Below the pieces are notes generated by a model that searched no databases, had not been told where the DNA came from, and saw only the letters and a program-made list of their open reading frames with translations. This document shows positions 2,571 through 64,000 of a DNA stretch of 64,000 nucleotides, in pieces. A program made the position numbers and the translations under genes. Within the stretch, counting starts at the first letter, position 1; each line of letters opens with the position of its first letter. The stretch comes from Raillietiella orientalis (lineage: Eukaryota): positions 992,001-1,056,000 of the forward strand of contig JAYWIR010000035.1 in the NCBI GenBank assembly GCA_036172245.1. Direction: 5' to 3'.

Positions 2571-2891
2571 AAAAACGTGAAGCACTTTTTTCTCCAAATA
2601 CTTTCTATACCAGTGATTTCTTTCAAGAACCGCCCAGAAACGCTGGATCCCGATCCACAAATCCACAGAGTGAAATAAGAGTGCACACACGAAGCGATGG
2701 ATTAATACAAGTGGCATATGGAGATGGCAATTCGTTATAAGAACAGAACTGATTTGAAATTGACATGTATTCAAATGTTCAGGAACTTTTCGAAAGTTTG
2801 CCAAAGATTTCATTCAACACATTGTAATCAACAAGAAATTCATTTCCTCACAAAGAAATGTGCACAAAAGGTAACATAGGGCGTAACCTAC

Positions 2892-4477: not shown

Positions 4478-4509
<32 letters not shown>

Positions 4510-6212: not shown

Positions 6213-6247
<35 letters not shown>

Positions 6248-9200
6248 GAAGTGGACATACAAAATCAAGGCAAATAATTTTTCTGTGCAATTAAAAGAAT
6301 TCAATTATAAAATAGAAAATTTCCATAATGAAACCAGGAAAGAAAACTGCGGAAAAGGAGTGGAAAGCACAACTGCAAAACGAGCTTCAAAAATGCAAAA
6401 TTCATGAGATTAAAGAATATTTGTAATTCAATAAACCTGCTCGAAAACCGTCATTTTAATTCAACCGTATCACATTGCAGATAGCAATTATCCCAATTTA
6501 TGTGAAAAAAGAAACAAGAAAAGCATAACGAATCAGTAAATCTCCACAAATAAATGAAAAAAAAAAAAAAAAAAAAAGGACGAACGAGATGCCCCTCTGC
6601 TATGTATGTCAGCTACAGTTTCAAATTGAAAACATAAAATGAAACTCCTAATCAAGGAACATCCAACTATTTATCAATTACAAAAAAGTTAACATTCCTC
6701 CATGTTCCGAGCAAAACATTGCATCATTGAAATCACCAGCTAGACAAGTAAGAATTGTGACAACTTATAAATGAAGAAGCAAACTTCTACAATCAGTAGA
6801 AGTGAACTTAACTTCCAAAACTGGGTCGGCGGAATCAGGCCCGTCCGTGAATCCAAGAAACATGAAAGCTGGCTGAGCAAAGAAAGCAAATTTGAAAATA
6901 CAGAAAAAAATGAAAGATGAGCTCGGACGACAGGCATATAAATTCAGTCCAAAAGAAAAGGAATGTTTCGGTCCACTATCCAAAACCGACTTTCCCATTT
7001 CCAAAGAATTGAAAAATCTTTCCCCTTATTTTGAAGAGAAATGCAGAATACTACAAGAGTGGAATTACAGTCCTACTATTAATGAAACTCAAAAAACACG
7101 AAAGCACCGATTCTAGAAAATTTGGATAGAAGAGAAACGATAAGGTAGGTTATTCATGAGAAGAAATTGAAAATTGCCGCTCTATCGTCTATTCATACCC
7201 TTTCAACAAGACATAGAGATACCAGGCTGATCACACATGAAGATACACATTTTGCCCTATCTGCTTCTTCCTGAAAATCAAGTGCTACCGAGGTTGCTGA
7301 ACAAGCAAAACTTGCAACAAGACAACCTTCACGCACCATGTTCATCTACTTAATCGTTAATGACTAATTTGGCTTTTCAAAATAACAAATTTGGCTTTCC
7401 GAAGGAACACAGCGACGGACGACCTCTGACATAGACTGTACAGCATGCAAGAATCCCTTAGTAAATCCCTGGATAAAAAAAACTATATGCGAATCGTGAA
7501 TTCCTGAAACTGAAGAAATTCCTTGTCATGATGATCAATAGCCAATTCAGAATTTTGATCCGATTTTGTTATACATTAGCTCTGGGGGAAGCCGCGGCAG
7601 GATTGTCTTTTGTGATTACAGAAATCGTCGACTTAAGAAGCATTCTGGATTTTAATGGCAACCATAAATCAATCCGTCAGACATCGTTTCTGACGATACA
7701 TGCACACACGCACACACAAACAAACAAACAAACAGAACTTAATTATGAATTAATGTACTAAACATCACCCAAGGAGAAAGGGAAGCACGTGACCCATCCG
7801 TCAAGATACTACTAGCATCAATTCGCAGAACTATTCTTTTCCTGAGATGAGATCGTTCCACTTTTAAGAGAAGGATTTTTCGTGTTTTGACTAAGAATTC
7901 TAGGTACCAAAACTGGTATTCATTCACACATATGCGACAGCAGCTCAGCTACCGATCAATGTATCATTCGGACACTGGATTTCGTACACATATATGTACC
8001 GTCCGTTTGAAGAGTCCTAAAACGTCTTTATAATGAAATACCGGGAGAAGAAGAAAAAAACATACATTTATAATGAATTAATCATCCGTTATTCAACCCT
8101 CGACAACTGATCAAATATTCACGATATTCGCCAACAAATAGTAATTAAATATTTTGCAAAATTTGTGGCTTTCAATACTAGTATTAATAACTGACGGAAA
8201 GAGCAACACTTTACACCCTTACGCAAATTTATATAAAAGGAAAAAAAAAGCTCTCACTGACACGCATCAACATGTGTTGATGCGTCCAAGAAAATTCCCA
8301 TGAAATACACAATCATCGTGGAAATTCCATTCTGAATTGGACGTTAACGTAGCACAGCACCTTACAAGATGCTGAATGCAAGTACCCATAGCCCAAATAC
8401 CCTTTTATTGCTTTGTTTTTATTAACAGAATCGAAGATCGGATTGATCCGAATTCTCAATAAAACTGAAACTCACTTACCACGTTCAGATGGGTAAATGG
8501 ATTCGTCTGGGGTGTCCCCTTGACCATGAGTAAGCAGGATCTGTTCATCCAACTCTTGTAATTCAGCTTGGAGTTCTAAAAGTTTGCTGTTTGATTCCTT
8601 AACGATGTTATTCACATTCTGTAGCGACTTCTTATCACTAGTAGCTTTACGGAGATTCTCGGCTCCTTCCTTGATTTTCAATTCTTTGCGTATTTGGCTC
8701 CTGATGTGCTCCTTTAGTTCTTCTAATTTATGAAGAAGAGAACCTTCTGTATGCAATCCATATTTAGCACTAAGGTCATGAAACGCCGGATGTAGATAAT
8801 CATCACTCTGAAACAGAGAAAAAATAAATACAGTGTTCTTGGATGCAGTGTTTCAAATTCAGGCTCGGCATATAACGCTGCCCACAAACGATGCACTCGA
8901 TATTTAGGATGAAGAACCAAACCAAAGGCACCACATAAAACTGCCATACACAGTTTCTGAGAAAGTTTCTCAGGGGGTGCCAATGATGGAATGTTACAGA
9001 GTAATTTGCCTGCTGCATTATATTCCAATAAGGGCAGAACACACTCGTCACAAACACTTTCTGAATGAAACCTTTGTATTGCTCATCCCATCAAATTGTA
9101 ATGTGATAACATTGGTTTGTGGCATTTTTATATCGTTTTTGTTGCTTTGGGTAACTTTGCGAATAGGTGTGTGGCATATGAGGCAGCTTACTTACTGCAA

Positions 9201-32900: not shown

Positions 32901-34810
32901 AGTTTTTCAACAAGGCCAAGAATCTTGATCAGAGAACCGAGAAAGCACAGCACTAAATGCTGTTTCTTGGTTTGCCTACCATCCGAATCTCCGTGTCCAA
33001 CAATAAAATCTCGTTTTTGTTGGTAGCATTATCCACTTGCAACAGCTGAATTAACGTTGTTGTTCTCCATTAAAGTTCATGAGGAAAAGTTTATAATGAA
33101 AAAGATGATTTTAATGATTATATTTTGTTTCTTTGAGCGTTTGGTCATTTTGGTTAATTTATCATAATCAGTTCCGAGGATTAAAAATTGTTATTGTATT
33201 TTAAAAGTTAAAGTCGATTTATATTTTATCAAAAACGGTGACATCATTTCGGAGATTGAATGTTTTCGATGTTTACTTGTAGATAATAAAATGGCAAATA
33301 ATTTGCAAGGGTCGGTGTTTACATTCAATTTAATCACATATGAAGAATAACAATAAGATTGATTGATTAGCAAAACACTTGGAAGGCAAACTTTGAAAAG
33401 CAAGAAAATCGTTTTCTCAAGTTGAAGAGTAACAGCTTTTATGCAGGGAATTAACGCAAATCGTGTTGTCCGCATGTTTTAAATGCTGTGATTCATTGGA
33501 TGTTGTAATGAGTTCAGACAGAAAGAGTTTTCGCGAGTGAATAAATGAAAAGGACTCATTAGGTTGATAGATCTTGCGTATGTAATTACAAAAATCAGTG
33601 GAATAAAAAGAATAATTAATAAAACGGAAACTAGCGGATGTGACCAATATCAAATGCATTTACACAATAAAGTGATTTTATGCCAAAGGTGCCCTTTATT
33701 TAAGTGCCTTTTATCCCTTTTTTTTACCAAGAGATGTGAGTCCAAAATCTAGGATTAACATCGTTAGCTACTTATTTATTTTGTCAAGTAAATCAAAAGA
33801 GCAATTTAACTGCAAAAAATAAGTAGAACAAGTAACAAAACTCAGGCACTAAATGGTGAAATGTTCAGTTATATACAAAATCATGTCATTGTCAAAGCTG
33901 CATATATGAGTATGATGTTGGCTTCCAAAATATGTATTGATAAAACATTAGATTATGTTTTTTTTATTCTTTTACTGTGCAGGTACTTCGTATTAGCACG
34001 TACTGATCTTAATCCTAATTGTCCAAGTCACAAAGCACTTACTGGTTTTATAGTTGAACGAGAATGGCCAGGAGTCACACCAGGAAAGAAGGTAAAAAAA
34101 ACTGATGAATGTGTTCAGTTCAAGTGACTAATGAAGGAAAATAGGAAATAAACATGGGTCAGCGTTGTTCTGACACTAGAGGGGTGGCATTTGAGGATGT
34201 GCAAATTCCTATTGAAAACATGTTGATGGGGGAAGGAACTGGATTCAAAATTGCAATGGGTGCTTTTGATATTACTCGACCACCAGTGAGTTAGGCAAAT
34301 ATTGCTTCTCTTAATTAATTAGAGATTTGAAAGCTGTATCAATATTAGGTAATACTTTTAGGTAGCAGCTGGTGCAACTGGACTAGCACAACGCTGTTTG
34401 GATGAGGCTAAGCAGTATGCCCAACAGAGAAAAACATTCGGTGCTGAAATCATTTCACATCAGGTTGATTACTTCATACATTTCATTAACACATTAAGTG
34501 TCTCAAGGCAATACTTTTTATGCTAGCGGAAATGGCAATAGGTGTGGAACTAGCACGACTTTCTTGGATGAGGGCTGCCTGGGAATATGATAACAAACGG
34601 CGCAACACTTATTACGCATCAATAGCAAAAGCATTTTCTGCTGACGTAGCTAACAAATGTGCAGCAGATGCTGTTCAGATCTTTGGGGGTAATGGATACA
34701 ATACTGAATACCCAGTTGAAAAGTTGATGCGTGATGCAAAGATATTTCAAATTTATGAAGGTACCTCTCAGATTCAGAGGCTGATTATTGGACGTTCATT
34801 GATAGACTAA
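26959..34810 (+). CDS. ACADM: Medium-chain specific acyl-CoA dehydrogenase, mitochondrial (411 aa)
   Basis: Exons 26959-26964, 27091-27184, 27269-27436, 30473-30573, 31333-31413, 31455-31585, 33983-34091, 34145-34285, 34362-34463, 34508-34810 join in frame. Basic presequence-like N-terminus; motifs [41 protein letters not shown] and catalytic [10 protein letters not shown]. Confidence 0.96.
32119..32158. repeat. Perfect 16-bp inverted repeat with 8-nt loop, in ACADM intron 6
   Basis: AACCAAAACCAGAGTG-acctcagg-CACTCTGGTTTTGGTT. Confidence 0.85.
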
Positions 34811-35343: not shown

Positions 35344-38300
35344 TTAGTGTGGCAATTTTTTTCTGAGACTAAACATCAAATCGGAACTGGTATCTGCAGC
35401 ATAGTAAATGTTTGATCCATTGGGGAAAATGATTTCTGAAACAATGAGTTGATATCAGAGGACATCTAACACTTGATTCTTACCACGATCAGGAAGTAAT
35501 TGTGAGAGCTGATAGTCTTCTGGGTTGCCATTGATGTTGTGTTTATCTAATGCTTTTCTGATCACAGTTGCAGTACGTTCGTGGTTGAAAAGCATTATGC
35601 TTTTGTAAATATTTATACCTTCCATTTCACTATTCCAAGATTCTACAGATACTTTTATCACATAAAAATTGCTGTTTTCATGTTGCTGCATTGTGCACTT
35701 AGGCAGTTTACCATTTCTGTGGTGTTTTATGCTTGATGCTAGCGATAATTCGGCATTAGCACCAGTATCATATGAAACAGCAGTTGAATTTGCACATTTG
35801 GCAGGATTAGATTTTTCATTTATCACAGATAGATTGTTAGTGGAATGTGAAAGAATATCTGGAAAAAATATCTAATCTCCAACAGTTTTAAAATGATAAT
35901 TACTTTTCCCATAATTATTTGGTTCAATGATGCAGGAAAGCTCATAACTGCACTTTTCATCTAGGACTAGACAAGAATTGTACCATCTTTCAAATTCTGC
36001 ATCAACATGGAAACTGTACATCTGAGCTGAGCTTTGTAATAACTTTAACTGAAAAGTACATTCATTAATACATTTTCATAAATAAACTGCTGCTAATGAA
36101 ATGTATTTTGTGCTTTTGATTATGTGTCTGTACTCTTAATTACGAGTCCCAGAGGTAGAGATTACTGATTGAATGCATTGTATTCATTAATGCTTGCATT
36201 ACCTGAGCTAGGATTTCAAATTCTTTTCTACGTTTATCAAAATGTAAAAGTGAACCATCAAGATAATCGGGCATGGCTGTATCAATCATTGTTAAATCTG
36301 TGAGGAACGTACCCAAATATGGTATGGTGCCATATGCTGTGTTCTAAATGCGGCATTAATGAATTATTGTGACTTCAAGTGTACAATACCATGGGATTGA
36401 CGTTATTCTTCTGCACTGATTTGGAACAGTGTCGATCGTTTTGTCCTATGAAACCAGCAGATTTGGCTGTTCCTTCCTTTTCTAACAAATTTCTTTGTGT
36501 GCGTAAGTTATCTTCTTCACTAAAGATGCTTGCTAAATCATTGTAAATTTCCATCTACAATGCAAAAAATGGAAATTAATCCTCCAAGGATTGGTTTATT
36601 TTAGAAAGCATACTCCGTTATTATAGAGATTATTAAGATCGTCAAATTATTCTACCTCAAATTATGGGAACTAATGTGCATTATGCAAGTGATCTTGCAA
36701 AAAAAAAAAAAAATTCTAACATCTTCCGTGCACTTATGTTGAACAGTTTTCATTTACTGTATTATATGCACAGTAAAGTATGAATTCAAGATAAGGAATA
36801 TAAATTATTTAGGCCAAAACTTAAAATGAAGATTTTTCCGAGCAATGTTACATACAAAAATGCATGAACTCAATAAACACATGCCTTACATGCGTTTAAC
36901 AAGGTTCAGAATGTCTCCAATGTGGTTATGGCAAACAAGACTCATTAATATGGAACAGTCAACAGATAACCGAATGTGTAGGAGGATGTTTTTAACTCCA
37001 ACTTGTGCTGAGTTGTAGATTTATAACAAACTTTACCATGATTAATAACCTGTAACAATTTTTGAACGTTTCGGTCTCATGAAGAGATAAACTTTTGGTA
37101 ACCAAATGAACTGAGAAATCAAGTCACACTAATTTGTATAAAAAGAAACAAAGTTAAAGAAACAACTAAGCTTAAAACGCTGAGAACTTTCACAAAATAA
37201 CACAAACTGAAAATATAAATCCAAATGTAAGAACAATTTTCAGTTTCGCACAATTCTTGAGTTCCTTCAAAAATTTAAATGGAGAGACCTATAATCTGAA
37301 GTCAGTAAGTATTTTTAATGAATAACTAATTGAACAAAAATCAATTACTCTATTTAGTTCTTAATGAAACTTTCAAGAAATGAGAATAAAGTTTACAGAA
37401 AATGTTTTAAAGTAAAAGTCTTGAAAATGTCCTCAGAAATCATGCAAACAGCTTTTGATTACTGTAGCAGGAAGACATGATTGAGACAATGGAAAGCTTC
37501 TTGAATTGGGAAAACTTTAAAACCACAGTTTTGATTTCAATTACTAAATTACTTGCTTCACATTAACTAAACAAAAAGTGAACATTTTTGTACTTATATA
37601 ACTGAAATTGTTTAAAAATGTAAAAGGATCACCTTATCTTTCGGAACAGCACTCCAAATTTTTCTTAAACGATGAACTGGCAGAGATTGCAATCCACTCA
37701 CTATAGCTTTCAAAGAAGAAAAATTCTTTAGACACCTTAATTCCTTTAAATGTGAAGTAAAAGTAACTGATATGAATGATAAATTAGTTCTTTAAACCTG
37801 AGCTACATTAATCCACTTTACAATAATTTTCACTCTTTCATATGGTTTAGCATCAGCATTAATTAGAATTGTGCTCATAACCCGAAATGAGACAGCATTG
37901 AATTGCTGAATTGTTGCAACAACTGTAGGAGATTTATTATCTTTTTCTTTGTCACGGCGGGACCAAACTGCTCCAAGACACTGATAAGGTATGAGGTGCA
38001 GAAATAATTCCTAAATAGGGAACACAATTTAGCATATCGATCTTTTCATTATGAATCTTAAATCTTTTGCATTTGATTATAACTAAACCTCGCACTGCAT
38101 AACTTTGTACATCAAATCCAAAAAGTTATACAGTAAAACTGTAGTGCTATGCCACAATAAGGTATATTTGTATTACCAATAATACTACTACATGAGAACA
38201 TTATCTAGTACATTTGCACATCTAATGTCCAAAGTTGTATACTACATGACAGTGCCATATAACTTGAGACATTTGGAGAAATAATGTAATATGCATACAC

Positions 38301-49918: not shown

Positions 49919-51653
49919 ATGGCTGAAAGAGAAGAATGTGTATTTAGAGCAAAACTTGCAGAACAGATGGAGAGATATGACGGTGAGGTTTGTTATGAGT
50001 ACTGAGTTTTGTTATGGGTTATGGAAAAGCACCTTTCATGAGACCGGTGTTCTCACAGTTAGAATCCTTTTTATTATTTCGAATTCCCGTTCTCAAGTTG
50101 CTATGTTTCATAGAGAATTCTCGTGCCTGGTGTGTTGGTGATCTCTTGAATCACAGTAATGTTTAGTTTTCAAGGTAGTAAATCCTTTTTTGCAGTTAAG
50201 ATATATCGTAGTATAATAATTGCCATCAGTATTAATATCCGCTTTTTATTGTTGCAATCATTAAAATTATCCCCATTGATATTTTCGCAGTTTATCTGCC
50301 GAATGAGATGTTCGTTATCCGGAACAACTTTACTAAATGGACAATTGTAATTTTTTGTGAGTAGTATTAAGTTTTATAGATCATATAGACAAGTTGCCGC
50401 CGTACTAAGTGCATTTCAGTGGTTTTCGTAGCCGAATGCAGCCCATGTTAAGAAAAGTCTTCAGTGCACCAGCTTATTTTTTTGATGCGTAGTATGTGCA
50501 AGTGTTTTAAAACAGTGCTTTGTGAGATGTGGTTGCAGAATGAACATGTGGTGATGGATTGTGCATTTCATTGAGTAATAGTGATGATGATAGTTGACTA
50601 GTAATAGTCATATATTGTTTTTTGTATATGTTTTGTATTTATATTCTAGAAATGGTACAGGAGATGAAAAAAGTGGCTTCGACAAAAACGGAATTATCTG
50701 TTGAAGAACGCAATCTTTTGTCAGTGGCTTACAAAAATATCATTGGAACACGACGAGCCGCATGGAGAATAATTTCCAGTATTGAACAGAAAGAAGAAAG
50801 CAAGGGTACAAATCAAAAAATTCAAATGATAAAATCTTACAGAGCACAGGTTTGTGTTTTAATGATCATAAGGTTTAGTTAAGTGCATACAGGAATGCTT
50901 TCTTGTGTACTATTTGTATTAAATCTCATATAAAAAAATTTGAAGCGTTAGTCATTACTTGTCTCATTTTTTTATATAAGTAAACTAATTTTAGGTTGAA
51001 AAAGAATTGAAAGAAATCTGCCAAGACATTTTGCAAGTTCTAGATGAATGTTTAATTTCTGCTGCTTCTGCTGGAGAGTCTAAAGTGTTTTACAATAAAA
51101 TGTTTGTTCTCTTGTGTGTTGCTAATACTTGAATTTTATTTCATAGGAAAGGAGACTATTATCGATATTTAGCTGAGTTTGCTGCAGGTGAGGATAAAAA
51201 AATCGCTGCTGAAAATTCATTGGCAGCATATAAAACTGCTAGTAGTATTGCTACAACAGAATTGGCACCTACGCATCCCATTAGGTTTATAGAATGTCCA
51301 CAGCGGTATTGGCATTACTGTGTGTTTCAGATTGGGATTAGCATTGAACTTTTCTGTATTTTATTATGAGATTCTCAATTCTTCAGAACAGGCATGCCGG
51401 TTGGCAAAGGCAGCATTTGATGATGCAATTGCTGAGCTTGACATGCTCTCTGAAGATAGTTACAAAGACTCAACTCTAATTATGCAATTACTTAGAGATA
51501 ATCTTTCTCTTTGGGCTAGTGATATGGAGGGACCAATACCAGATGGAGGTAGTATGTCATGTTGTGTTATACTAAATTATCATGCTGAGCACAGATGAGA
51601 AAAAGGAAGGTAAAGAACAAGCTCAGAATGTGGGAGAACAAGATGTATCTTAA
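49919..51653 (+). CDS. 14-3-3epsilon: 14-3-3 protein, epsilon type
   Basis: Exons 49919-49982, 50650-50849, 50995-51101, 51147-51284, 51331-51548, 51595-51653. Motifs [59 protein letters not shown]-terminus ...EQDVS. Confidence 0.96.
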
Positions 51654-52048: not shown

Positions 52049-53071
52049 TCATATTACTCGACGGACTTCAAAGAAACGTTTTAAATAATAAATCTGTCCT
52101 AAAGTCATGACTACAAGGACAAAGGCTTCAAAAAAAGCCCATAGCACCACTCTAGAATTTGTGTTTTCATTGATAGCATGATGAATTGCTGCACGTACAG
52201 CCATGTATTCTTGCTCATGTTGTACATTAGTAAGAGCTATGAGTAGCTCCCGAATTTTCTCCCCTAGTTTGTTTTGTTTTTCTGGAAAGTGCCTTGGCTT
52301 AGCGTAATGTTTCATTTTACTCACCATCTGCATTGGTATCATTGTGTACAGCATTTTCCACCACATCAATTGAAAACATAACAACTTTAGGAGTCATTGT
52401 AGACATTTTGTTCCCAAAGCAGTATGAATAAATACCATCGCTGGTGGCAGCAAAGGTATATTTCCCATTACTTTCACGTTCTCCTTGATAAATAACGTTA
52501 CCATTAGGCCCAGTAATCCTTACATCTATATCTAAAAAACCACCTTCTGCAACCTCGAAAATTAGACCTGAAAAACGTGCACATTAGAACAGGAAATTCT
52601 TAATCCACAATTTGCTGTGAGCATAATTCAGCATCAAACTCAAACTCCCTTTTAAAATTTTAAAACTGAAACCAAGTTACATAAATGCTACGGACAAACT
52701 GAGATCGGGGAGGTTATGGCTTTGGTAAAGCGCAAGACAGTGAAATTACAATTCATCAAATATTTTTGACAGAACCCAATTTACATGAATGAGAATAAAT
52801 TAAAGGATGCATAATTATCCATGTTGTTAGGACTTTCGGTGGAATTCAATGTATTTTAAACCGAAACTCGGTTTCTGTGGAATTCCTCATGCGGCAACAT
52901 ACTATAAAGTAAAGACTTTTTACCCATCTGAGTTCTTTCCGTTGCGTTTTCGTAAAAGCATTCTTCCACGTGGGCATCAACAGTTACATAATAGCTATGA
53001 ACACCACGAAAACAGACTAAACACAACAAACCAAAAACGTAAATATCGAAAGTTGTATGCAGTTTAATCAT
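52049..53071 (-). CDS. TMED2: p24 beta / transmembrane emp24 domain protein 2 (signal peptide, GOLD domain, TM helix, cytosolic tail)
   Basis: Exons 53071-52924, 52567-52325, 52281-52049. Motifs [57 protein letters not shown], tail [12 protein letters not shown]. Confidence 0.96.
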
Positions 53072-53336: not shown

Positions 53337-56159
53337 TCACATGTTTATTAATATAAACTAAATCAAATTCCAAAAATTCCAAAATCGACTCAAATACTAT
53401 TTAAGATAACTGATGGAATAATACCCATGCTGAGCGGGATACTTAGTTACAGTCGTCATGATTCCATTCTTATGGACTGATTCAATCCTTCCTAGGTATT
53501 GAATTTCGTAAACTGTAATCGGGCTCAAATTATTCTCCTTCCTGAAATTCGTTGAGACACTTTTTTAAACCGAAATTATGACCACTATGGTTTTTATCAT
53601 AGGAATCCTACCCACATATATATTTTTAGATAAAACATTCTATTGTCTTTCGTTTGTAAAAAGTCTGCAAATCTGACCGTTTAGCTATTCATGATGCAGA
53701 GTAAAAATTTCCCCATTTCTCAAGGATAGAAGTTTTTTTTCCATAGAACACTTTGTTATGAGAATACAGAACAACATGAGAAATTTATGATTAATTCACG
53801 CTCCTTTGCTCTTTTGACTTCCATCTAAAGCACTATTGGAGTATAGAGAAAAGCGATAGAAGTATTTTCTAACGGAAATAGAGAATAGAAATATATTTTT
53901 ATTTCCTCAAAACATTAAATAGAACAATAAATTAGCATATTAAAAATATATTTCGTGATCAAATCCAAGAAAATAACTGCAAAAGATCTAGTACAAAGGT
54001 AAAAAAATTGTGAAACATAACTTCAAGACATACTTTTTAAGAGGAAAGTTCAGTTGAGAGTAGTTCAGTGGATCATAAAAAGAAACCACATGGGAGAATA
54101 ATAGTCAAGAAGAATCGATTAAATGAATAAGATGGGAAATTTCCTTTTTAAGGACATTCTGAACCAGAGATCTAAGAAACAGAGATGCTAGGATTATTAA
54201 ATTCATACCTGGAGTGGGGAGAAAATGCCTTCCTAAAAGTATTAATAATACTTAATTTTTAAAAAGCATTCCATGTGAAGGGTAAGCATATTGCAAAACA
54301 ATCCATAATTTCGGGATAAGCATAACAGGTAACTGGAATGAATCGGATAATTAGTAGGTCTTTTTTAAAATCTAAGAGTGAAAGGCAGAGCTATTTTAAG
54401 TTTATTCTGAATATTTGCCAATATTCACCGAGTTTGTTACAAATAGTGAAGAATGAAACTTGGTACGCAAAGCCTTTGGTGCTTGTTCTAAGAAATCAAG
54501 AGCAACTATGAAATAACCATAGTCTCTTCTGACAAGGAAATATTTGGCTATGTTCGATAATGCTCTCTTGGGTGAAACTCAGTTGTGTGAAAGAACAAAC
54601 GTAATCCATATTTTTGGGAGGAAACAGAGATGACATACGTCGACTTACGTACAACAAATCTTTTGATCAGTTTTTATAAAAAAATAAGCTTCTTATAGAA
54701 TTATCAAGATTAAAGAGCGAAAATTAGTCTGTTCGAATATATTAGACACTGCCCTCGATATCTATGAAAGGCACCATCTTGCATTTTTTGATTTTTTGAA
54801 ACAAATGCAGAAAAAGATGAAAGCTGATTATAAAAGTTATTGTAGTTCACTTCTTTTTATTAACAAGAAAGAACAAAGATTCCTGACTCGGAAAAGGGCT
54901 AAAAAGAACGTTCCAATGTTTTAGGAAATCTGCTTTGAAGTTGAAGTAATGCAAAGCTGGCCATTTTGAGTTTCAAATAAATGCAATGTAGAATAAATGG
55001 GAACAATCTGTGAGCACCTTCTCATGAAACTAATTCAAGACAACTCATATTTCTTTTTATATTCACGGTTCTTTCGCTTTTCCTTTTTCACAGAATAATT
55101 TAAAAATGTTAATAAGTCTTGGATCGATATTTAGGCCTGTGGGATATCAGGTAGTTAGAAATGACTACTTTGTAACAATATCATTTTCGCTTCTTTTCTT
55201 GTATTATTATTGCTCATATTATATTTGATCTCAATCATATGCCATGCATCGTCGATTACCATCCTAACTTCGTCACAGCAAAGCATCCTGACATGGGAGA
55301 AAGTCTATTAGGTTTTGACTTAATTTTAAAATGAATTTTTATTCCGCCAGTAATTTATTAACAGTATATGAAAACAGACTCTTTGTGACAGCCTTTTTTA
55401 AGGTTGTAGAAGGCTTTGTTTGGTGCCGAAACAAATGTATACACTTCTATTTTCAGTAAAAGGGGAAACCATTTTCAGTAAATCCAAATCTAGAGTCTGG
55501 GACGAAATTGTCTAAAAGGCCTAATTGTTTCAATCGGGAAGTTCATTTTATCACAATATCGTAGTCCTGATTATATTACAGTACTTTTGTGGGTGAGGTT
55601 TTTGCGATAAACACAAAAAAAAACATCAAGGTAGCTTAAACATCTGAAAGGAACGAGACGTAGCATAACAAACTAATTCTATCAGGAAGGCAAAAACATC
55701 TTGAACTCCTTGAATGTTTAAACCACTTATCAATTTTCTTCTTTTGGTGTTTTTAATCTGAAGCACTGGGAGCGTGGATCTATTAAGTCTCCACAGCGCT
55801 GAACTCGTGGCCAGGATATAAGCTGGTATAGACTGGTAGATGCTCCACTTTAGAACTCTACACATGGGCTATGGTCTTCTTGCATTGGGATTCCCTGTGC
55901 AGCCAGAGCCCTGTACCACGTAACAGCGACAAATGCGTCCCCTAATTGATCGAAGGGCGAGGTAGTCGAGTTCATGCCGCACCAGTTGCTGGAATATTGT
56001 ACACTTCGTGTGAGGTAGAGGTGCGAAGCCATGCACTGTCACATGCGGACAACACCCTTCCGTCGAAGTGAAAAAAAAAAAAAAAAACACCCTTGGTTAA
56101 GAGGTTTCCTTCTATGCCGGTTCTGCTAAGCACGGCTTCAGTAGTTTTAATATTTGCTA

Positions 56160-56269
56160 CGCCTCCAGCACTCTGACGCCAACGAAGGAAACGAAACCCT
56201 CTATAAAGAGGCCGTCCACTTGGTCACTTCCATGATCCAGAAAGCTGGAAAATGTCAAAGTTCGCACTT
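56160..56269 (+). pseudogene. Left part of a decayed piggyBac-like transposase C-terminus (target of the Tx1-like insertions)
   Basis: Frame-shifted reading RQRRKRNPL*RGRPLGHF / SMIQKAGK / VKVRT, continuous with the right flank when the retroelements are removed. Confidence 0.4.
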
Positions 56270-56280
56270 TGACATTTTCC
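56247..56280. repeat. Perfect 15-bp hairpin at the 5' junction of retroelement copy A
   Basis: GGAAAATGTCAAAGT-tcgc-ACTTTGACATTTTCC. Confidence 0.95.
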
Positions 56281-56282
56281 GC

Positions 56283-57639
56283 AGGGAATTCGAGAAGCTG
56301 CAAAGGAAAACACTGTGGGGCCACTATCGCCCAAGAGTACGTTTAAAACCCCTGTGTCGTCCCAGGGAGGAAGGAGGCTCCGGGATGAAGTCGCTTGCAC
56401 ATTCCATGGAAATCATGGATACGCGACACATCCTGGATATCGCCACCCATTGGGATGATTGGCCATATGCGGCGCATAGGGCCTACGCGTTGTTGCTTAA
56501 CAACTCGAAAGGCCTGATGACTGCGCTGCTAGGCCGAGCAGGGGAATGGATCAACATCGACCCGACCTGGAGGAGAAAGCAACGGCTGGTGCGTAAGCAC
56601 AAGATGAAAATCGTGCCGAGAAGCAGGGAACTCTGGCAGGAGGAATCCATCCTGGTGATCCCCTGGATGCTTCCGGTCCCTCCGGACACGCGAAGCTGGA
56701 TCTACCAGCGGCCCAGAGTTACCCTGCAACGAATTCAGGAGTGGCGTCGAGGAGGCTACCTACATCACTCGCGTGTACTCCGGTACATAGAGATGATGCT
56801 AGGGAGGTTTACCCACCAGACCCGCGAGGTGTGGATCAACCACAACGACTTCGCGTGGTCCAGAGTAACCAGAATGAACCTCCGAAGATTGATCAAAGAA
56901 GAGGACCGCGACACCAGTGCCCTCCAAGAAGCCGCCGATCGCTACGGGAGTGACCGGATCAACCTGTTGGCGATCGGCACGACGCTCTGGAGGAGTGACC
57001 TTCCGCCGGACACCCAGGACAACCTCCTGATGTTCTACCATGGAGGAATCCTGACGGGGTCCAGACTACAGCACTTCACGAGAAGAAGGGAAGACAGAGA
57101 CTGCACGGCGTGTGGTGACACCGATACAAGACTCCACATCTTGACGTGTCCCACACTGCTTCACGACTGGCTGATCCTGAAAAGGATCATCGGACGGACC
57201 ACCAGCTCCGTAATGGAGATCCTCGCCGGGATGTTTCAGGGAGATGGTAATGTTCCCTATTACAATCCCATGGTGAGGACGACCATCGCCCTCTTCATCA
57301 CCGCCATACTTGTGCGGTGGTGGAAGATGAGGAAAGCCAGGAGAGCCGCACCTCCGATGGAGATCCTCCAAGGACTCCTGAAGAAGGAAATCGGCATCAG
57401 GAACTGAGGAAGAATCCAAGCCTGGACGTACAGATTCATCCTGAAGAGGATCGAGGACGACGCCCGGGAACAAACATCTTGACCCCCACCCTGATAGCAG
57501 AACTCGAGTGAATCCAAGGACTTCAAAGTGAACAGTGGTAAACATTGCGTGAATGAGACTGTGTGCATGAAAATTGTAGTGTGAATGTTATTTTTATAGA
57601 AAATAAATTTACCCCACCCCTTGTGGGACTTGGGGAAAA
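56283..57639 (+). mobile_element. 5'-truncated L1/Tx1-type non-LTR retrotransposon, copy A (ORF2 C-terminal third plus 3' UTR)
   Basis: Collinear with 61997-63351 (EKLQRKTLWG...CTACGDTDTRLHILTC). AATAAA at 57602; flanked by TCAAAGTTCGCACTT at 56255 and 57640. Confidence 0.93.
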
Positions 57640-57890
57640 TCAAAGTTCGCACTTTGACAGGAAGTGTGGGGCATGCAAAAAGTAGTAGACGACAGAATCT
57701 GCGAAATTATAAATTCAAACTTGTATTTAAGGACTTTAAGGACCGCAGCCTTTAAGGACTTGGTCAAAAAGGAGAAGGGCACGAGCAGTATCATAGGCGA
57801 GGAAGGCGACTGAGCCGTGATTATTGCTAGTTGAAAACTTTTCCCAATACCCCGCCAAGGCAGTGAGTAACATCACTGCCGCGGCAATTT

Positions 57891-59674
57891 TTGCGTGCCC
57901 CGAGAGGGCAAGTGCTGAGTAAAAAGACAGTGAGTGCGCAACCAAGGACGTCCCACAGCGACTGCAGCAGCAGAAGCAGCGAAAGGGAGTCCAAGGTGGA
58001 GGACTCGCGATCCTCCCTGGCGGCGGTGCAGCAGCACCCCCCCGTCAAGATGCAAGAGCAGCGGTGGATGGGAGCCACGGAGAAGCCACAGCCCATGGAG
58101 GTGGGGCAATCGTGTGTTTCTTCCGGAGCGACTCCGATGGAAGCGGTGGAGACGACGATGGCGGTGGCGGTGGCGGCGGCGGCGCCCCCAGAGACGGCGG
58201 TCGCCGGAGCGACGGGAGGGCCCGTAGGCCCCACCGTTGCTAGTGACGCGACGCCATCTTGCGCGGTGGCTGCGACCGTGGGGCGGCCACCGGCAGCGTC
58301 GGCAGCTTTTTCCTATGCGGCGGTGGCAGCTGGGACGGCGACCACCCAGCCGCAGAGGAAATTCGGGAAGCCAGAGTCTGGGCCGATACGAGACATCGAC
58401 GAGCCCATAATTAAACTAGGACCGAACGTGAAGACGGTCACGTTCAAGACTAAACTTATAAAAATGAACAACATCAAAGAGGTATACCTGGCTCTCTACA
58501 AACAGCAAGTGGACTTTGACCGCCTGCAGGCGATCGTCCCGAACACCTCGGGATTCACAGTGTACACCGACTGTGAAGAAATAAGGGAATCCCTAATTGA
58601 AAAAGGGATCAACATTTAGGGCAGGTGTCGGCGAAATGCCGTACACCACCCTATTCCTGAGCGGACTCGGGCCGTTCGTCACCCAAAGGGCTGTGTGGAG
58701 GAAACTGTCGCAGTACGGCGAGGTACTGGACAGCAACTTCCACAATATATCGGGAAAGATCTTTTCGGGGGAGGCGACGGTGAAGATGAAGTTGAAGGAG
58801 GAAGCCCAGGTTCCTGGGATGATCTACTTCGACGGGGACGACATGGGAGTCTCTGTTCGATATAGGGCGCAGCCAGTTTTCTGCAACGGCTGCAAAACCT
58901 TTGGACATCGGCAGCGAGTCTGCCCGAGGGCCAAGTGCTTCCGTTGTGGGAAGCAGGGCCACCAGGTGCGGGACTGCAGCATGCCGGAGGTGTGTTCGTT
59001 CTGCAAGTCTCCGGGGCATGCAAAGTGGTGCTGCCCGGAGTTTACAGAACGATGCGGGGTCAATCCCCAGTTAGGACACGGGTGTTGGAGGAGGTAATCA
59101 AACCTCAAAGGGCGATGAAGCAGAGGAAGGCGAAGGAGGCAGCCCCAGTTTCGGCGGACGGCTTCACCACGGTGGGGAGGGGCAGCAAGAGGAGGATGCT
59201 CGTGAAGGAGCAAGAATCCTCTGCTGCGCAGGTCGAGGAGCAGGTTGGCGAGCAGGTTGGCGAGCAGGTTGGCGAGAAGGCCGAAGTAGAGCAGGTTGGC
59301 GAGAAGCAGGGTGTGCCGGAAGGCGAGGTGATGGAAATCACCGAAACCGTTCCGACATCGAAGGAGGCGGTGCAGCTCACCGAGGAGGTGGTGAAGCTTG
59401 CGGAAGAAGTGCAGGGGGAGAAAAGTGAGGTGCAGCAGGAGCAACTCCTGACTCGCATCAATGAAACCCAACAGGGAATCAACACCCTGGTGATCCAAGA
59501 AGAGAGTGAAAAGCTAGAGAACCAGCTTTTCGAAGTGAAAGCGGCGTACTGCGCGAAGGTCTCCCTCGAGACATTGGCACGGAGAGCGATGCCGGGAGTG
59601 AGAAGCCAGCTTCCTCGACGGTGAGACGCGAAAGGTCTCCCCGTCAGAAGAAGCTGAGGAAAGCGAAGCATTAG
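57891..59674 (+). pseudogene. Retrotransposon ORF1 (Tx1/ZCCHC3-like nucleic-acid-binding protein), broken by three apparent frameshifts
   Basis: Segments 57891-58619 (first ATG 58050), 58597-59097 (TLFLSGL..LSQYGEV RRM-like; CNGCKTFGHRQRVC, CFRCGKQGHQVRDC, CSFCKSPGHAKWCC), ~59060-59545 (E-rich) and ~59546-59674 (…RRERSPRQKKLRKAKH*). Confidence 0.85.
59238..59300 (+). repeat. 12-bp coding tandem repeat (GAGCAGGTTGGC x3 plus one further copy; EQVG) in ORF1
   Basis: Units at 59238, 59250, 59262 and 59289. Confidence 0.9.
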
Positions 59675-59689
59675 ACTTCGAACCCTTTC

Positions 59690-62600
59690 ATGTCCTCGTC
59701 GCTAGCGAACGCCAGGAGGCTAAACATCGCCTCCTGGAACATCAATGGATTGACAGACCAAGGCAAAAGGAAGACAATCTTGCGGACCATCGCAAGACAA
59801 GACGTAGTGTGCCTACAGGAAACCCACCGTCTCGGACAACAAAACGCCCAGGAGATGGAACGCCGGTTCAACGGGCAACTGTTTGTCAGCGAGGGACAAA
59901 GGAAGACCATGGGTGTGGCGATCCTCATCAAGAACGAGCTCGTCCACACCCTTCTGGAAACCTTCTGTCCACTCGCTGGAAGGATAATCGGCGTGCGACT
60001 GTCCTGGTCCGACAACGTTCACCTGTTTCTGCTGAACGTGTACGGACCGCACAAGAACAAGCATCGGTGCGCGGAGGCTCTCCACGAGGCACTCCGCCAA
60101 CGTGTAGCACCGAAGGACATGGTCATCGTCGCAGGTGACCTGAATATTCAAGACCACATCAAGTACCGTCAAGACATCAGAGGAAGAGAGGCGTATCGAC
60201 GGTTGTCCGACGACTTCGGACTCGTGTGGCGAACAGCCAGCCACAAACCGATCGATCACGTCCTTCATAGCGTGGAGATCGACAACCGAATCCAGGGTTT
60301 TTGCGACATTCCTCACCTGCTGTCCGATCACCTTTTGGTTGGATTCTCCCTCCGCACGGAAAATCCTCGACGGCGAAAGGCCACTAGGGCGGCGCTCATC
60401 TGCATGCCCGCCTGGTTTGAGATGCTTCCCTGTCACCAGGAGGTGATCGAGGCGATTCTGCGAGACACCACCATCCGCAGAGTCGCCGACTGGGACAGGT
60501 TGAAGCATCGGATCCACCTGTTCTGCAACATGCAGTACTTTTGCAAGCGACTGAGGCAAGAAGCGTACCAGGAGCTCAACATCCAAGACCGCTCCCTCTT
60601 TAAGTACTACGATCAGTACGAGAGTCGGTACGTCTTCAATGATGTGAAAGGGGAGGTCGGCGTGCTGGAAAAAAAGAATCTGGCGACAGACATCTTCTGC
60701 ATCCAGTACGGCGTCCAGAAACGGCAGACGTCGGAAGACATCATGGGAGCATTCCATCAGCACTACGAAGAACACTTCCGACGGCAACACACGTGCAAGT
60801 CTATGCAGAGAACTTTCCTGAGCTACCTCGAGAAGAGGACAAGAGATCTCCAGAGAGACAAACTGGAGAAGTATTTCTCCGAAGATGAGGTGAAAACGGC
60901 TTTTGGGCAACTGCGGAAGGACGTGGCAGCGGGCCCTGATAGTGTACCCATCACGCACTATCAGCGGTACCTGCACGCCTACCTGCGCTTGTTCCATCAG
61001 CTCACCCTCTGCATCCGTGAAGAAGGAAGACTACCCGAGTCCTTCTACGAGAGTCGGATGAGATTGTTGCCGAAAGGAGGCGACCTCACGCAGGTCGCCC
61101 AATGGAGGCCAATCTCCGTCCTAAACTCCGATGCCAAGTGGTTGGCGAAGATCTGGTCCAACCGCTTAGGCAAGGTCATGCCGAAGCTCATCTCTCCGGT
61201 CCAAACATGTGCGATGCCCGGACGCCACATGTTGGACAATGTCAAGTGTGCCCAAGCCACCGTGGGACTCAGCCGGCACGTCGGCAAGGACCTGGTGCTG
61301 GTGTTCACTGACATGGAGAAGGCTTTCGACTCCATCGACCATGGGATGCTGCTGAAGATTCTGGACAAGCTGGGCCTTCCGGAATACTTCAGCACCTTCG
61401 TGAGATTGGTACTCGAGAACCAGTACTGCCGAATCAAGATCAACGGCGAAGACACGACAGCAATCAGGATGGAACGAGGAGTACGCCAGGGCGACTCGCT
61501 AAGTCCTATGCTGTTCGTTATTTACATGGAGGCGCTGTCCTCGTACATCGAGAAGAGTGGACGCCTCCAAGGCATCCAGATCGACGACCAGCGGCTCACC
61601 CACCTGGCGTACGCTGATGACCTTCTCTTCTTCATCAAAGGAGAACGAAATCAGCGTGCGTTCCTGGAAGTGGTGACGCTCATGGAAGAAGGACTAGGAT
61701 TAAAGATCAATGCAAGGAAAAGCCAACTTTTGCCCGTCGGAATCCTGGGCCTCTCCGTCCTCACGGGGAGAGGATTCCGAACGGTGGACACAGCCAAATA
61801 CCTGGGAGTCTACATTGGCGACGGCTCTGAGTCGAAGCTTTTGTGGGATGAAACCCTGGGGAAAACGGCGAAAGAGGCAGCGAAGTACACCCGACAGGAC
61901 CTTGGAATGAAACGCAAGGCCAACCTCTGGAATGGAGTCCTCCTTCCTAAGGTGCTCTTCGGGGCGGCCTTTGCGAGAGTGAAAAGGGACACCTCGAGGG
62001 AGCTGGAAAAACTGCAAAGGAAGACATTATGGGGCAAATATCGCCCAAGAGTTCGTTTGAAACCCCTTTGTCGTCCCAAAGAAGAAGGTGGAACCGGGAT
62101 GAAGTCGCTTGCACACTCCATGGCAATCATGGACACGCGACACATCCTGGATATCGCCGAACAATGGGACGACTGGCCGTACGCGGCGCATAGGGCCTAC
62201 GCGTTGTTGCTTAACAACTCGAAAGGTCTGATGACTGCGCTGCTAGGCCGAGTAGGGGAGTGGATGACCATCGACCCGACCTGGAGGAGGAAACAACTGC
62301 TGGTACGAAAGTACAAGATCAAGATCGTGCCAAGAAGCAGGGAACTCTGGCAACAGGAGTCCATCCTCGTGATCCTTTCGATGCTTCCGGTCCCGGACGA
62401 TACCGGAGGATGGATCTACCGGCGGCACAGAGTTACCTTGCAACGAATCCAGGAATGGAGAAAAGGAGGCCACCTACATCATGTTCGTATACTTCGGTAT
62501 ATCGAGAAGATGCTAGGTAGGTTCACCCACCGGATCCGCGAAGTGTGGATAAACCACGATGACTTTGCGTGGTCCAGGGTAACCAAAACAAACCTCCGAA

Positions 62601-63037
62601 GAATGATAAAGGATCAAGATGAAGACACCAGTACCCTCCAGGAAGCGGTCAATCGACACGGAAGCAACAGGATCAACCTGTTGACGATCGGCACGACCCT
62701 ATGGAGGAGTGACCTTCCGCCGGACAGCCAGGACAACCTCCTGATGTTTTATCACGGAGGAATCCTGAGCGGGTCCAGACTAAAGTACTTCACAAGAAGA
62801 AGAGGAGACGAAGACTGCCCAGCATGTGGAGACACGGATACCAGACTTCACATCCTGACGTGTCCCACATTGCTCCACGACTGGCTGATCCTTGAACGGA
62901 TCATTAGAATCACCACCAGTTCCACGATGGAGATCCTAGCCGGGATGTTTCAGGGAGATGGTAATGTTCCCTGTTACAATCCCATGGTGAGGACGACCAT
63001 TGCCCTCTTCATCACTGCCATTCTGGTGCGGTGGTGA
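59690..63037 (+). CDS. Retrotransposon ORF2: apurinic-like endonuclease, reverse transcriptase and C-terminal Cys finger (1115 aa; probably 1172 aa to TAA 63208 without the premature TGA)
   Basis: APE motifs SWNINGL, CLQETH, NVYGP, AGDLN, IDHVL, SDH. RT motifs GPDS, WRPISVLNSDAK, DMEKAFDSIDH, GVRQGDSLSP, YADD, KYLG. Cys finger CPAC-x8-H-x3-C. Confidence 0.96.
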   Translation: MSSSLANARRLNIASWNINGLTDQGKRKTILRTIARQDVVCLQETHRLGQQNAQEMERRFNGQLFVSEGQRKTMGVAILIKNELVHTLLETFCPLAGRIIGVRLSWSDNVHLFLLNVYGPHKNKHRCAEALHEALRQRVAPKDMVIVAGDLNIQDHIKYRQDIRGREAYRRLSDDFGLVWRTASHKPIDHVLHSVEIDNRIQGFCDIPHLLSDHLLVGFSLRTENPRRRKATRAALICMPAWFEMLPCHQEVIEAILRDTTIRRVADWDRLKHRIHLFCNMQYFCKRLRQEAYQELNIQDRSLFKYYDQYESRYVFNDVKGEVGVLEKKNLATDIFCIQYGVQKRQTSEDIMGAFHQHYEEHFRRQHTCKSMQRTFLSYLEKRTRDLQRDKLEKYFSEDEVKTAFGQLRKDVAAGPDSVPITHYQRYLHAYLRLFHQLTLCIREEGRLPESFYESRMRLLPKGGDLTQVAQWRPISVLNSDAKWLAKIWSNRLGKVMPKLISPVQTCAMPGRHMLDNVKCAQATVGLSRHVGKDLVLVFTDMEKAFDSIDHGMLLKILDKLGLPEYFSTFVRLVLENQYCRIKINGEDTTAIRMERGVRQGDSLSPMLFVIYMEALSSYIEKSGRLQGIQIDDQRLTHLAYADDLLFFIKGERNQRAFLEVVTLMEEGLGLKINARKSQLLPVGILGLSVLTGRGFRTVDTAKYLGVYIGDGSESKLLWDETLGKTAKEAAKYTRQDLGMKRKANLWNGVLLPKVLFGAAFARVKRDTSRELEKLQRKTLWGKYRPRVRLKPLCRPKEEGGTGMKSLAHSMAIMDTRHILDIAEQWDDWPYAAHRAYALLLNNSKGLMTALLGRVGEWMTIDPTWRRKQLLVRKYKIKIVPRSRELWQQESILVILSMLPVPDDTGGWIYRRHRVTLQRIQEWRKGGHLHHVRILRYIEKMLGRFTHRIREVWINHDDFAWSRVTKTNLRRMIKDQDEDTSTLQEAVNRHGSNRINLLTIGTTLWRSDLPPDSQDNLLMFYHGGILSGSRLKYFTRRRGDEDCPACGDTDTRLHILTCPTLLHDWLILERIIRITTSSTMEILAGMFQGDGNVPCYNPMVRTTIALFITAILVRW

Positions 63038-63351
63038 AAGATGAGGAAAGCCAGGAGAGCCGCACCTCCGATGGAGATCCTGCAAGGACTCCTGAAGAAG
63101 GAAATCGGCATAAGAAATTGTGGAAGACGAGCAGCCTGGACGTACAGACTCATCCTTAAGAGGATTGAAGACCACGCCCGGGACCAAACACCCTCATACC
63201 CACCCTAAGTGCAGAACTTCAGTGAATCCCAAGGACTTCCAGTGAATACAGAACAAGTAGTGTATTGTATGAATGTGACTGTAGTGTGAATGATATTAAA
63301 AAAAAAAAAATGAAAATAAATTTATCCCACCCCTTGTGGGACTTGGGAAAA

Positions 63352-63482
63352 TCAAAGTTCGCACTTGCAGCGTGGTTTTGGAACAAGAAGCCAAGAGGGA
63401 TTTCATCTCAGCCTTCCTCTCGACTACATTTATTTTCATCCATGCTTCCCACACTATCACATCCCGAACCCTTCCCGCTAAG
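63352..63482 (+). pseudogene. Right part of a decayed piggyBac-like transposase Cys-rich C-terminus
   Basis: KVRTCSV..., NKKPR..., DYIYFHPCFPHYH.P resemble the RxCxVC...PCFxxYH terminal motif; several frameshifts are needed. Confidence 0.4.
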
Positions 63483-64000
63483 AGCAACTGTTCCGTGGAC
63501 ATCGCTCCCTGTCTTGCATGCGCCTAGTAGGAAATCACATTCACATCGGATTTATTATATTTTGTTTCAGATGAGTAAACGACCAGGTGCAGACTCGAGA
63601 TAAACCCACAGCATGCTACTCAGAATGCAGTATGGCATGAAAAAGGGGTATGTTTTCCACCAAGCAGAACTTTCCTTTCTTTTTCGATTTTTATGGTTAT
63701 TACTCGTTTACTTCTTTCGTGATAAAATTGAGTCGATGGCGGTCTCATTGCATTACTGTACCGAGTAGCAACAATCTGTATATTCTAAGCAACCAAGATC
63801 TTCCCGTGATCAAAAGGCGAATTTTAAAGCCTGTTCTCGAAACACACGAGTTTTACCCCTTTCTTTCTTTCTTTTTTTTTCAATCCGTTCGCCTCGTCAG
63901 AAGCGCCTGGACTGCTGGATGCTTTATTTTGAGCTCTTTGCACGCTCTTGCGTATTTCATCTTCGGTTTCCTGATTATCTTGAGATTAGCGTTCCATATG

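Follow-up and report, generated by a model that had tools for sequence, protein, structure and literature searches.

Many families within the Tx1 clade of non-LTR retrotransposons (elements that lack long terminal repeats, LTRs) are specific for particular targets, DNA transposons among them (PMC4494074). The Tx1D DNA transposon receives insertions of the Xenopus element Tx1L, and Mariner-N4_AMi those of the crocodilian Tx1-Mar, whereas Keno targets U2 small nuclear RNA (snRNA) genes and other families of the clade target U5 snRNA, 5S rRNA, satellites and microsatellites (PMC4494074). Tx1-Mar also moves SINEU, a group of short interspersed nuclear elements (SINEs) with U1- or U2-derived heads, whose 5′ extensions have been ascribed to template jumping or to 5′ transduction (PMC4494074). 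In snRNA/LINE-1 chimeric retrocopies (U6/L1 and others), snRNA sequence lies in sense orientation 5′ of long interspersed nuclear element (LINE) sequence within a single insertion flanked by target-site duplications (TSDs) (bioRxiv 10.1101/2025.02.02.635956). Insertions driven by R2 in human cells can exhibit "snap-back" 5′ junctions, in which cDNA or nearby target DNA has been copied, as well as fusions to U6 RNA (PMC11371274). Here we describe a locus that can be compared with each of these systems. It lies in a 64-kb stretch of the Raillietiella orientalis genome (contig JAYWIR010000035.1, positions 992,001 to 1,056,000; "the window" denotes this whole stretch), where two copies, A and B, of one non-LTR retrotransposon encoding an apurinic/apyrimidinic endonuclease (APE) and a reverse transcriptase (RT) are arranged head-to-tail. 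We consider it probable that this is a site-choosing element of the L1 group (Tx1-like) that was inserted twice, independently, at one genomic site.

Exact matches to the 15-mer TCAAAGTTCGCACTT are present on the + strand of the window at 56255-56269, 57640-57654 and 63352-63366, where they bracket the 5′-truncated copy A (56283-57639, + strand) and the full-length copy B (57655-63351, + strand), an arrangement that had been proposed in a first-pass annotation of this DNA and that is borne out in full. A scan of the window permitting up to two mismatches to the 15-mer returned five matches against 0.22 expected, a number attained by none of 100 shuffled sequences; two of the five represent sites already listed, detected again on the − strand owing to the partly palindromic motif. 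When three mismatches were permitted, nine matches were obtained against 3.35 expected, and each of the four additional sites carries three mismatches, such that no further good copy of the target is found in the window. The flank GGAAAATG (56247-56254, + strand) adjoins the insertion point upstream of site 1, and site 3 is followed by a downstream flank beginning GCAGCG. We also considered whether site 1 might be the tail of a third copy, and this candidate was rejected: the upstream flank resembles neither 3′ untranslated region (UTR) above the level of shuffled sequences (293 of 300 and 33 of 300 score as well). Since this flank is unrelated to the element 3′ UTR, site 1 is host sequence. 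Judged from this placement, the 15-mer has the character of a TSD, as opposed to a segment of the element.

At their 3′ ends, both copies join the motif at the same nucleotide, in agreement with what had been noted earlier. The junction of copy A reads CTTGGGGAAAA (tail GGGGAAAA) followed by TCAAAG, and that of copy B reads CTTGGGAAAA (ending in GGGAAAA) followed by the same six nucleotides. Thus, the bottom-strand and top-strand cut positions of the two insertions agree to the base, and the duplication is 15 bp in both. When 63 LINE proteins were used as tblastn probes, none of the 85 matches fell outside the stack. As the stack is the only LINE-like coding sequence in the 64 kb, the arrival of two random insertions on one base is improbable.

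Copy A can be aligned with the last 1.36 kb of copy B (61997-63351), with 88% identity over the first 300 nt and 83.6% over 1365 alignment columns. Within the coding portion, 960 of 1122 bases are identical and 162 differ. Among the 373 codons that could be compared, third positions hold 97 of the 161 differences, and there are 95.0 synonymous differences at 255.3 sites versus 66.0 non-synonymous differences at 863.7 sites, yielding a dS (synonymous divergence) of 0.514, a dN (non-synonymous divergence) of 0.081 and a dN/dS of 0.157 (Fisher p 1.4e-27). The earlier proposals that the copies differ mostly at synonymous sites, and that they stem from two lineages inserted separately and did not arise by local duplication, are therefore both upheld. 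These values indicate that the two lineages split while active under purifying selection and were inserted independently, and because both reading frames are nearly open, most of the divergence would be older than the insertions. On this codon evidence, A and B are shown to be independent insertions. Unequal exchange between TSD copies could in principle give a head-to-tail layout with a common 15-mer, if a single insertion had been duplicated locally in tandem, after which the pair diverged where they stand and the first copy was largely deleted. Changes accumulated in this way should be neutral, however, a prediction that is at odds with the ratio and significance given above and with reading frames that are still almost open, and we regard such a history as extremely improbable.

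The terminal 40 nt of the 3′ UTR (63312-63351 in copy B, 57599-57639 in copy A; + strand), which end in GGGAAAA, are 95% identical between the two lineages, whereas the rest of the 3′ UTR is rich in substitutions and indels. RNA folding predicts a stem-loop in this region of A and of B. The element carries a 3′ tail of only four adenosines, and so short a tail fits an RT that recognizes a specific 3′ structure. In the mechanism that we propose, the APE endonuclease would nick the bottom strand between 56254 and 56255 (on the top strand, between GGAAAATG and TCAAAG), and this nick would prime reverse transcription of an RNA whose conserved 3′ stem-loop is recognized by the RT. Cleavage of the top strand 15 nt downstream would then regenerate an intact target on both sides of the insert, permitting a later insertion to stack head-to-tail with the first. 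The stretch across the join between the copies is itself nearly identical in A and B, and copies originating from different loci with a common target might have been joined through these ~55 nt (the 3′ end and the 15-mer), whether during assembly or through ectopic recombination. No mark of a mis-join is evident in the sequence, and we consider such an artefact very improbable; even so, it would imply that two loci carry the same 15-mer and would thereby strengthen the case for target specificity.

The order of the two insertions is suggested by the sequences that follow the first two target sites. Sites 1 and 2 are identical over 20 bp (56255-56274), comprising the 15-mer and the nucleotides TGACA, and at site 2 these latter nucleotides (57655-57659) are the first five bases of copy B. 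Because the agreement extends into copy B, the most economical order is one in which B was inserted first, between GGAAAATG and GCAGCG at the 15-mer, with A later entering the left TSD copy of B. Between site 1 and the start of copy A are 13-14 extra bases, TGACATTTTCCGCA (56270-56282, + strand), of which the first 11, TGACATTTTCC (56270-56280), repeat the upstream flank at 56247-56257 perfectly, in inverted orientation; the origin of the last two to three bases, after 56280, is uncertain. The resulting hairpin has a perfect 15-bp stem (ΔG −16.8 kcal/mol, z −6.3) and is matched in stability by none of 200 shuffled sequences, and a hairpin of this type is absent at sites 2 and 3. Neither the 20-bp agreement nor the extra bases had been mentioned in the first-pass annotation. 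The inverted filler looks like the signature of snap-back synthesis. During insertion of copy A, the free top-strand end may have folded back on the short palindrome of the target (AAGT/ACTT; 9 bp if the nick lies at +20), such that self-templated extension would have copied the upstream flank to create the inverted repeat before a jump to the truncated cDNA.

A second unusual feature of the locus, which was not included in the first-pass annotation, resides near the 5′ end of copy B. The first 116 nt of its leader (57655-57770, + strand) are followed by a segment resembling U4 snRNA (57771-57909, + strand) that covers the whole of the corresponding Rfam model (RF00015, model positions 1-138) at 79.2 bits, where the gathering score is 46 (E 6e-16). 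The segment is in sense orientation relative to the open reading frames (ORFs) of the LINE, and it is set back from the TSD by the intervening 116 nt instead of occupying the extreme 5′ end. It retains the Sm site, a nearly perfect central stretch that pairs with U6, and both stem-loops, and its first 20 positions, at the 5′ end that would take part in U4/U6 stem II, match the consensus at only 10. With a 5′ end of this kind the segment is unlikely to work as U4, and the uneven distribution of its conserved parts does not look like uniform decay. Because a perfect 15-bp direct repeat flanks 57655-63351, we read the U4-like segment as part of the inserted RNA. The source RNA of copy B would thus already have carried a segment resembling a U4 gene together with the 116-nt leader, most likely acquired either by 5′ transduction from a master copy with a U4 gene just upstream of it or through a template switch.

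The composition of the leader brings in an alternative origin for this region. Its guanine-plus-cytosine (GC) content of 38.8% is near the 34% of the host and differs from the 54-61% measured for the element body, as might be expected if the DNA from 57655 to ~57930 were resident host sequence lying between the copies and the true 5′ end of copy B came after the U4-like segment. Copy A would then have been inserted upstream with a 20-bp duplication, with which the agreement of sites 1 and 2 over 20 bp is compatible, and the 15-mer after copy B would reflect either read-through of the target at its source or a second host copy. An A-rich stretch after the 3′ end of the U4-like segment also sits at the position of a would-be 3′ box and was counted toward this alternative. 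The proximal elements of snRNA genes lie ~55-60 nt upstream of the start (PMC4494074; PMC1761439), and the leader includes an ATTC-containing stretch (57710-57732) ~60 nt upstream of the U4-like start, with ATTC itself at 57713-57716 (−58 to −55). The bases that follow ATTC are A-AAC and not the N-CAA conserved in flies, a partial match to an insect consensus in a host that is not known to be an insect; the C at position 8 that is missing here is kept in 95 of 101 insect RNA polymerase II proximal sequence elements (PSEAs) (PMC1761439). Resident DNA would also leave unexplained why 57655-63351 is bounded exactly by a perfect 15-bp direct repeat, the pattern of a single insertion, and would leave copy B without a duplication, since no 15-mer with three or fewer mismatches occurs between the U4-like segment and ORF1. 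The poorly matching first 20 positions are likewise a poor fit to a working resident gene. On balance we find a host origin for the segment quite unlikely, and we continue to treat it as belonging to copy B.

Several short sequence similarities involve the leader. Three repeats of the TTTAAGGAC type occur at 57729-57763, AAGGAC(TT) is also present in both 3′ UTRs (57516 and 63231), and GGACTTGG is found at both 3′ ends as well as in the leader. The candidate explanation that the leader derives from read-through of the tail of an upstream copy, on the basis of the common GGACTTGG...TCAAA arrangement, was rejected as being at chance level (197 of 500 and 321 of 500 shuffles score as well).

A more far-reaching proposal, which we put forward tentatively and consider unlikely, is that the leader with its U4-like head is a standing feature of a family of autonomous site-specific LINEs, the counterpart of SINEU, with a new target that consists of the partly palindromic 15-mer within an unrecognized repeat. 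If so, the contrast between the kept Sm site, 5′ stem-loop and central region and the remodelled 5′ end would reflect selection for use in the element RNA, where the segment might serve as an snRNA-type promoter, in assembly of an Sm core, or in nuclear re-import of the ribonucleoprotein. Whatever its history, the presence of a U4-like segment in a full-length element is relevant to the acquisition of snRNA-derived heads by LINEs and SINEs.

The target had previously been described as corresponding to no recognized rRNA, tRNA, snRNA or microsatellite, and searches of the flanks are in accord with that description. When Rfam was applied at gathering score to the whole window, the U4-like segment was the only match, and at E<=5 over 54500-64000 the flanks yielded only noise (<=20.3 bits). 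ARAGORN found no tRNA. The flanks also gave no indication of a repeat within the window, as blastn with both of them matched only A-runs, and a literature search for the 15-mer, its reverse complement and its 12-mers returned only an unrelated Aspergillus primer. The DNA on either side of the stack (55750-56254 and 63367-63560) has a GC content of 45-54%, compared with a background of 34%, and was matched to no repeat family; this GC-richer island holding the target could be an older repeat or a promoter region. The sequence TATAAAG is present at 56202-56208, ~50 bp upstream of the insertion point. If it works as a TATA box, the target would lie just downstream of a transcription start, and co-transcription of inserted copies would be possible. 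Just upstream of the target, a run of 17 adenosines (56071-56087) follows ~300 bp of GC-richer sequence (55750-56070), and ACACCCTT is present on both sides of this run, which may be the tail of an older retroposed fragment.

How strictly the element selects its site must be judged from these data. The first-pass annotation had regarded the APE endonuclease as sequence-specific and had proposed that reinsertion into the regenerated TSD builds arrays. Site choice is supported by use of the same base twice, but sequence specificity is not established by two events at one locus, and the only array in evidence is a stack of two. A preference as loose as that of L1 could also account for reuse of a site, if the second copy was drawn there by coincidence or by a favourable structure such as the A-rich tail that the first insertion would have placed beside the regenerated TSD. 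Consistent with this possibility are the small number of events, the failure to find a multicopy target or another good copy of it in the window, and the fact that, had A been inserted first, the nick for B would lie directly after the GGGGAAAA tail of A. It is countered by the agreement of both cut positions to the base with the same 15-bp duplication, by the 20-bp identity, which favours prior insertion of B and hence entry of A upstream of the 5′ end of B and not at a tail, and by the absence of other LINE fragments from the 64 kb. We therefore judge loose preference to be rather unlikely, though it deserves more weight than the other alternatives raised here.

Several considerations nonetheless weigh against our overall interpretation of two independent insertions by a site-choosing element. 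The window was chosen because it looked unusual, and a rare coincidence in a family of moderate site preference is possible. The target lies in no recognized multicopy gene and is not repeated within the window. A single junction underlies the inference of both the insertion order and the snap-back step, and since the GCA that comes after its filler is also how the downstream flank begins (GCAG), another junction history is possible. Finally, assignment of the U4-like segment to copy B, as opposed to host DNA, is provisional.

Copy B contains two ORFs. ORF1 (58050-59624, + strand) is divided into three pieces: a segment with an Ala-rich N-terminus (58050-58619, frame 0), a segment with an RRM-like region followed by three CCHC knuckles at 58882-59034 (58636-59097, frame 1), and a Glu-rich, coiled-coil-like segment (~59098-59624, frame 0). 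This division over frames points to two frame changes in copy B. Pfam recognizes zf-CCHC in the ORF1 product (E 1.2e-5), along with RRM_1 at a level (E 0.027, 14.8 bits) that is under the cut-off of 20.7. A single-sequence AlphaFold model of ORF1 was too poor for use (predicted local distance difference test score, pLDDT, of 54). In the Glu-rich C-terminal part, 59238-59300 contains three tandem units of the 12-nt sequence GAGCAGGTTGGC (Glu-Gln-Val-Gly), with a further one close by.

ORF2 (59690-63037, + strand), assigned from Pfam and motifs, begins with an APE endonuclease domain (~59729-60331; Pfam Exo_endo_phos, E 2.1e-18, residues 19-219) in which NINGL, QETH, GDLN and SDH are present and the catalytic motifs are intact. 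This domain is followed by an RT (~61073-61813; Pfam RVT_1, E 1.9e-33) and by a C-terminal CCHC motif, CPACGDTDTRLHILTC, at 62816-62863. Copy A preserves the last 374 codons of ORF2, open to a stop at 57405-57407, including the CCHC motif CTACGDTDTRLHILTC at 57102-57149, and its 3′ UTR occupies 57408-57639. The ORF2 of copy B contains an in-frame TGA at 63035-63037, where copy A has a Trp codon. As they now stand, both copies are inactive, A through truncation and B through two frame changes in ORF1 and one stop in ORF2, damage that the first-pass annotation had overlooked.

Placement of the element in the L1 group is supported by its protein content, because APE and RT domains with a C-terminal CCHC motif are combined with three CCHC knuckles in ORF1, and because the best solved relative of ORF2 is human L1 ORF2p (4.8e-54), with R2 proteins scoring at 1.9e-25 or weaker. 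The endonuclease domain likewise has the human L1 endonuclease as its best solved relative (E 2.5e-7). An RRM together with CCHC knuckles defines the type I ORF1 protein, and this combination has been described as consistent with the Tx1 clade in non-mammalian animals (PMC5203782); the element would show it if its sub-threshold RRM is genuine. The earlier designation "Tx1-like" thus stands at the level of the L1 group, on the grounds of domain content and similarity to L1 ORF2p, and gains no support beyond that group. A word-indexed protein search with ORF2 identified 81 proteins at E<=1e-3 among 7997 candidates, with identities of 32% or less, and the best 150 of 72,104 matches in an exhaustive search are 24-34% identical. 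By this measure ORF2 is without a close relative in the protein collections, none exceeding 34% identity among the matches listed. The nearest Atlas clusters are generic APE and RT groupings that bear no clade names and include zf-RVT in part of their members; although the nearest relatives carry this domain, Pfam zf-RVT has no match in the element proteins. A search of viral contigs with ORF2 gave one pattern match and no relatives. The conserved 21-mer at the 3′ end was found in public contig scans at two metagenome loci and one genome locus, all without LINE context, and these matches proved to be one bacterial coding sequence (in a Hyphomonadaceae metagenome-assembled genome and two metagenome contigs), representing an unrelated chance occurrence.

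The stack is situated between genes in gene-dense invertebrate DNA. Pfam matches were obtained for 10 of the 78 window ORFs that were scanned, identifying exons of an HR1-repeat protein (2817-8852, − strand), a medium-chain acyl-CoA dehydrogenase (34490-34807, + strand), an RA-domain protein (35458-35871, − strand), a 14-3-3 protein (50598-51595, + strand) and a p24/EMP24 protein (52052-52583, − strand). Arthropod and mollusc proteins match the acyl-CoA dehydrogenase exon at no more than 84% identity, which points to an invertebrate host absent from the protein collection, and a search with the RA-domain exon found nothing. A scan for bacterial-type promoters and terminators, which is irrelevant to a eukaryote, returned nothing above shuffled sequences.

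Taken together, these observations are most likely to reflect a target-specific LINE of the L1/Tx1 group that offers instructive junctions and an unusual U4-bearing leader. Site-specific APE-type LINEs provide a natural form of protein-guided, RNA-templated insertion at a chosen DNA sequence, and each new target adds a case in which sequence reading by the APE fold can be tested. To this end, the locus offers a precise pair of cut sites (the bottom strand nicked before TCAAAG and the top strand 15 nt farther on) and a conserved 3′ RNA stem-loop. Nothing here is unexpected in kind, and the value of the finding hinges on a genome-wide count.

The resemblance to Tx1L and Tx1-Mar lies in an APE-type LINE of the L1 group with an apparent choice of one sequence, and the GC-richer island that holds the target could be another repeat, as are the targets of those elements. 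The target described here has been matched to no repeat, however, and the ORF2 of the element is at most 34% identical to other proteins among the matches listed. With Keno and its kin, the element would share both the association of its lineage with snRNA genes and precise reuse of a site. It differs in that the U4-like sequence is uninterrupted and forms part of the insert, 116 nt from the 5′ end of the latter, and in that the insertion site matches no RNA family. SINEU provides a parallel for the leader, as it too carries sense snRNA-derived sequence on the 5′ side of retroposons that Tx1-type machinery mobilizes; the present element differs in being an autonomous, full-length LINE, in carrying U4 in place of U1 or U2, and in having a further 116 nt on the 5′ side. 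In the snRNA/L1 chimeras, sense snRNA similarly precedes LINE sequence within one TSD-flanked insertion, but their snRNA occupies the extreme 5′ end and their L1 portion is usually truncated, whereas here the LINE is full-length and the leader encloses the U4 part. No autonomous, full-length element bearing a complete, internal U4-like segment, as we read copy B, is among the precedents seen in the SINEU and snRNA/L1 literature. The 5′ junction of copy A has its nearest counterpart in R2. That retrotransposon employs a restriction-like endonuclease and an rDNA target, and the snap-back proposed here would involve a top-strand primer at one natural junction. In the PRINT system, R2 nevertheless gives rise to inverted copies of nearby DNA at 5′ junctions ("snap-back", "extra template") and to fusions with small nuclear RNA (PMC11371274), and copy A may therefore represent a natural instance of the kind of fold-back synthesis recently seen in engineered R2 insertions.

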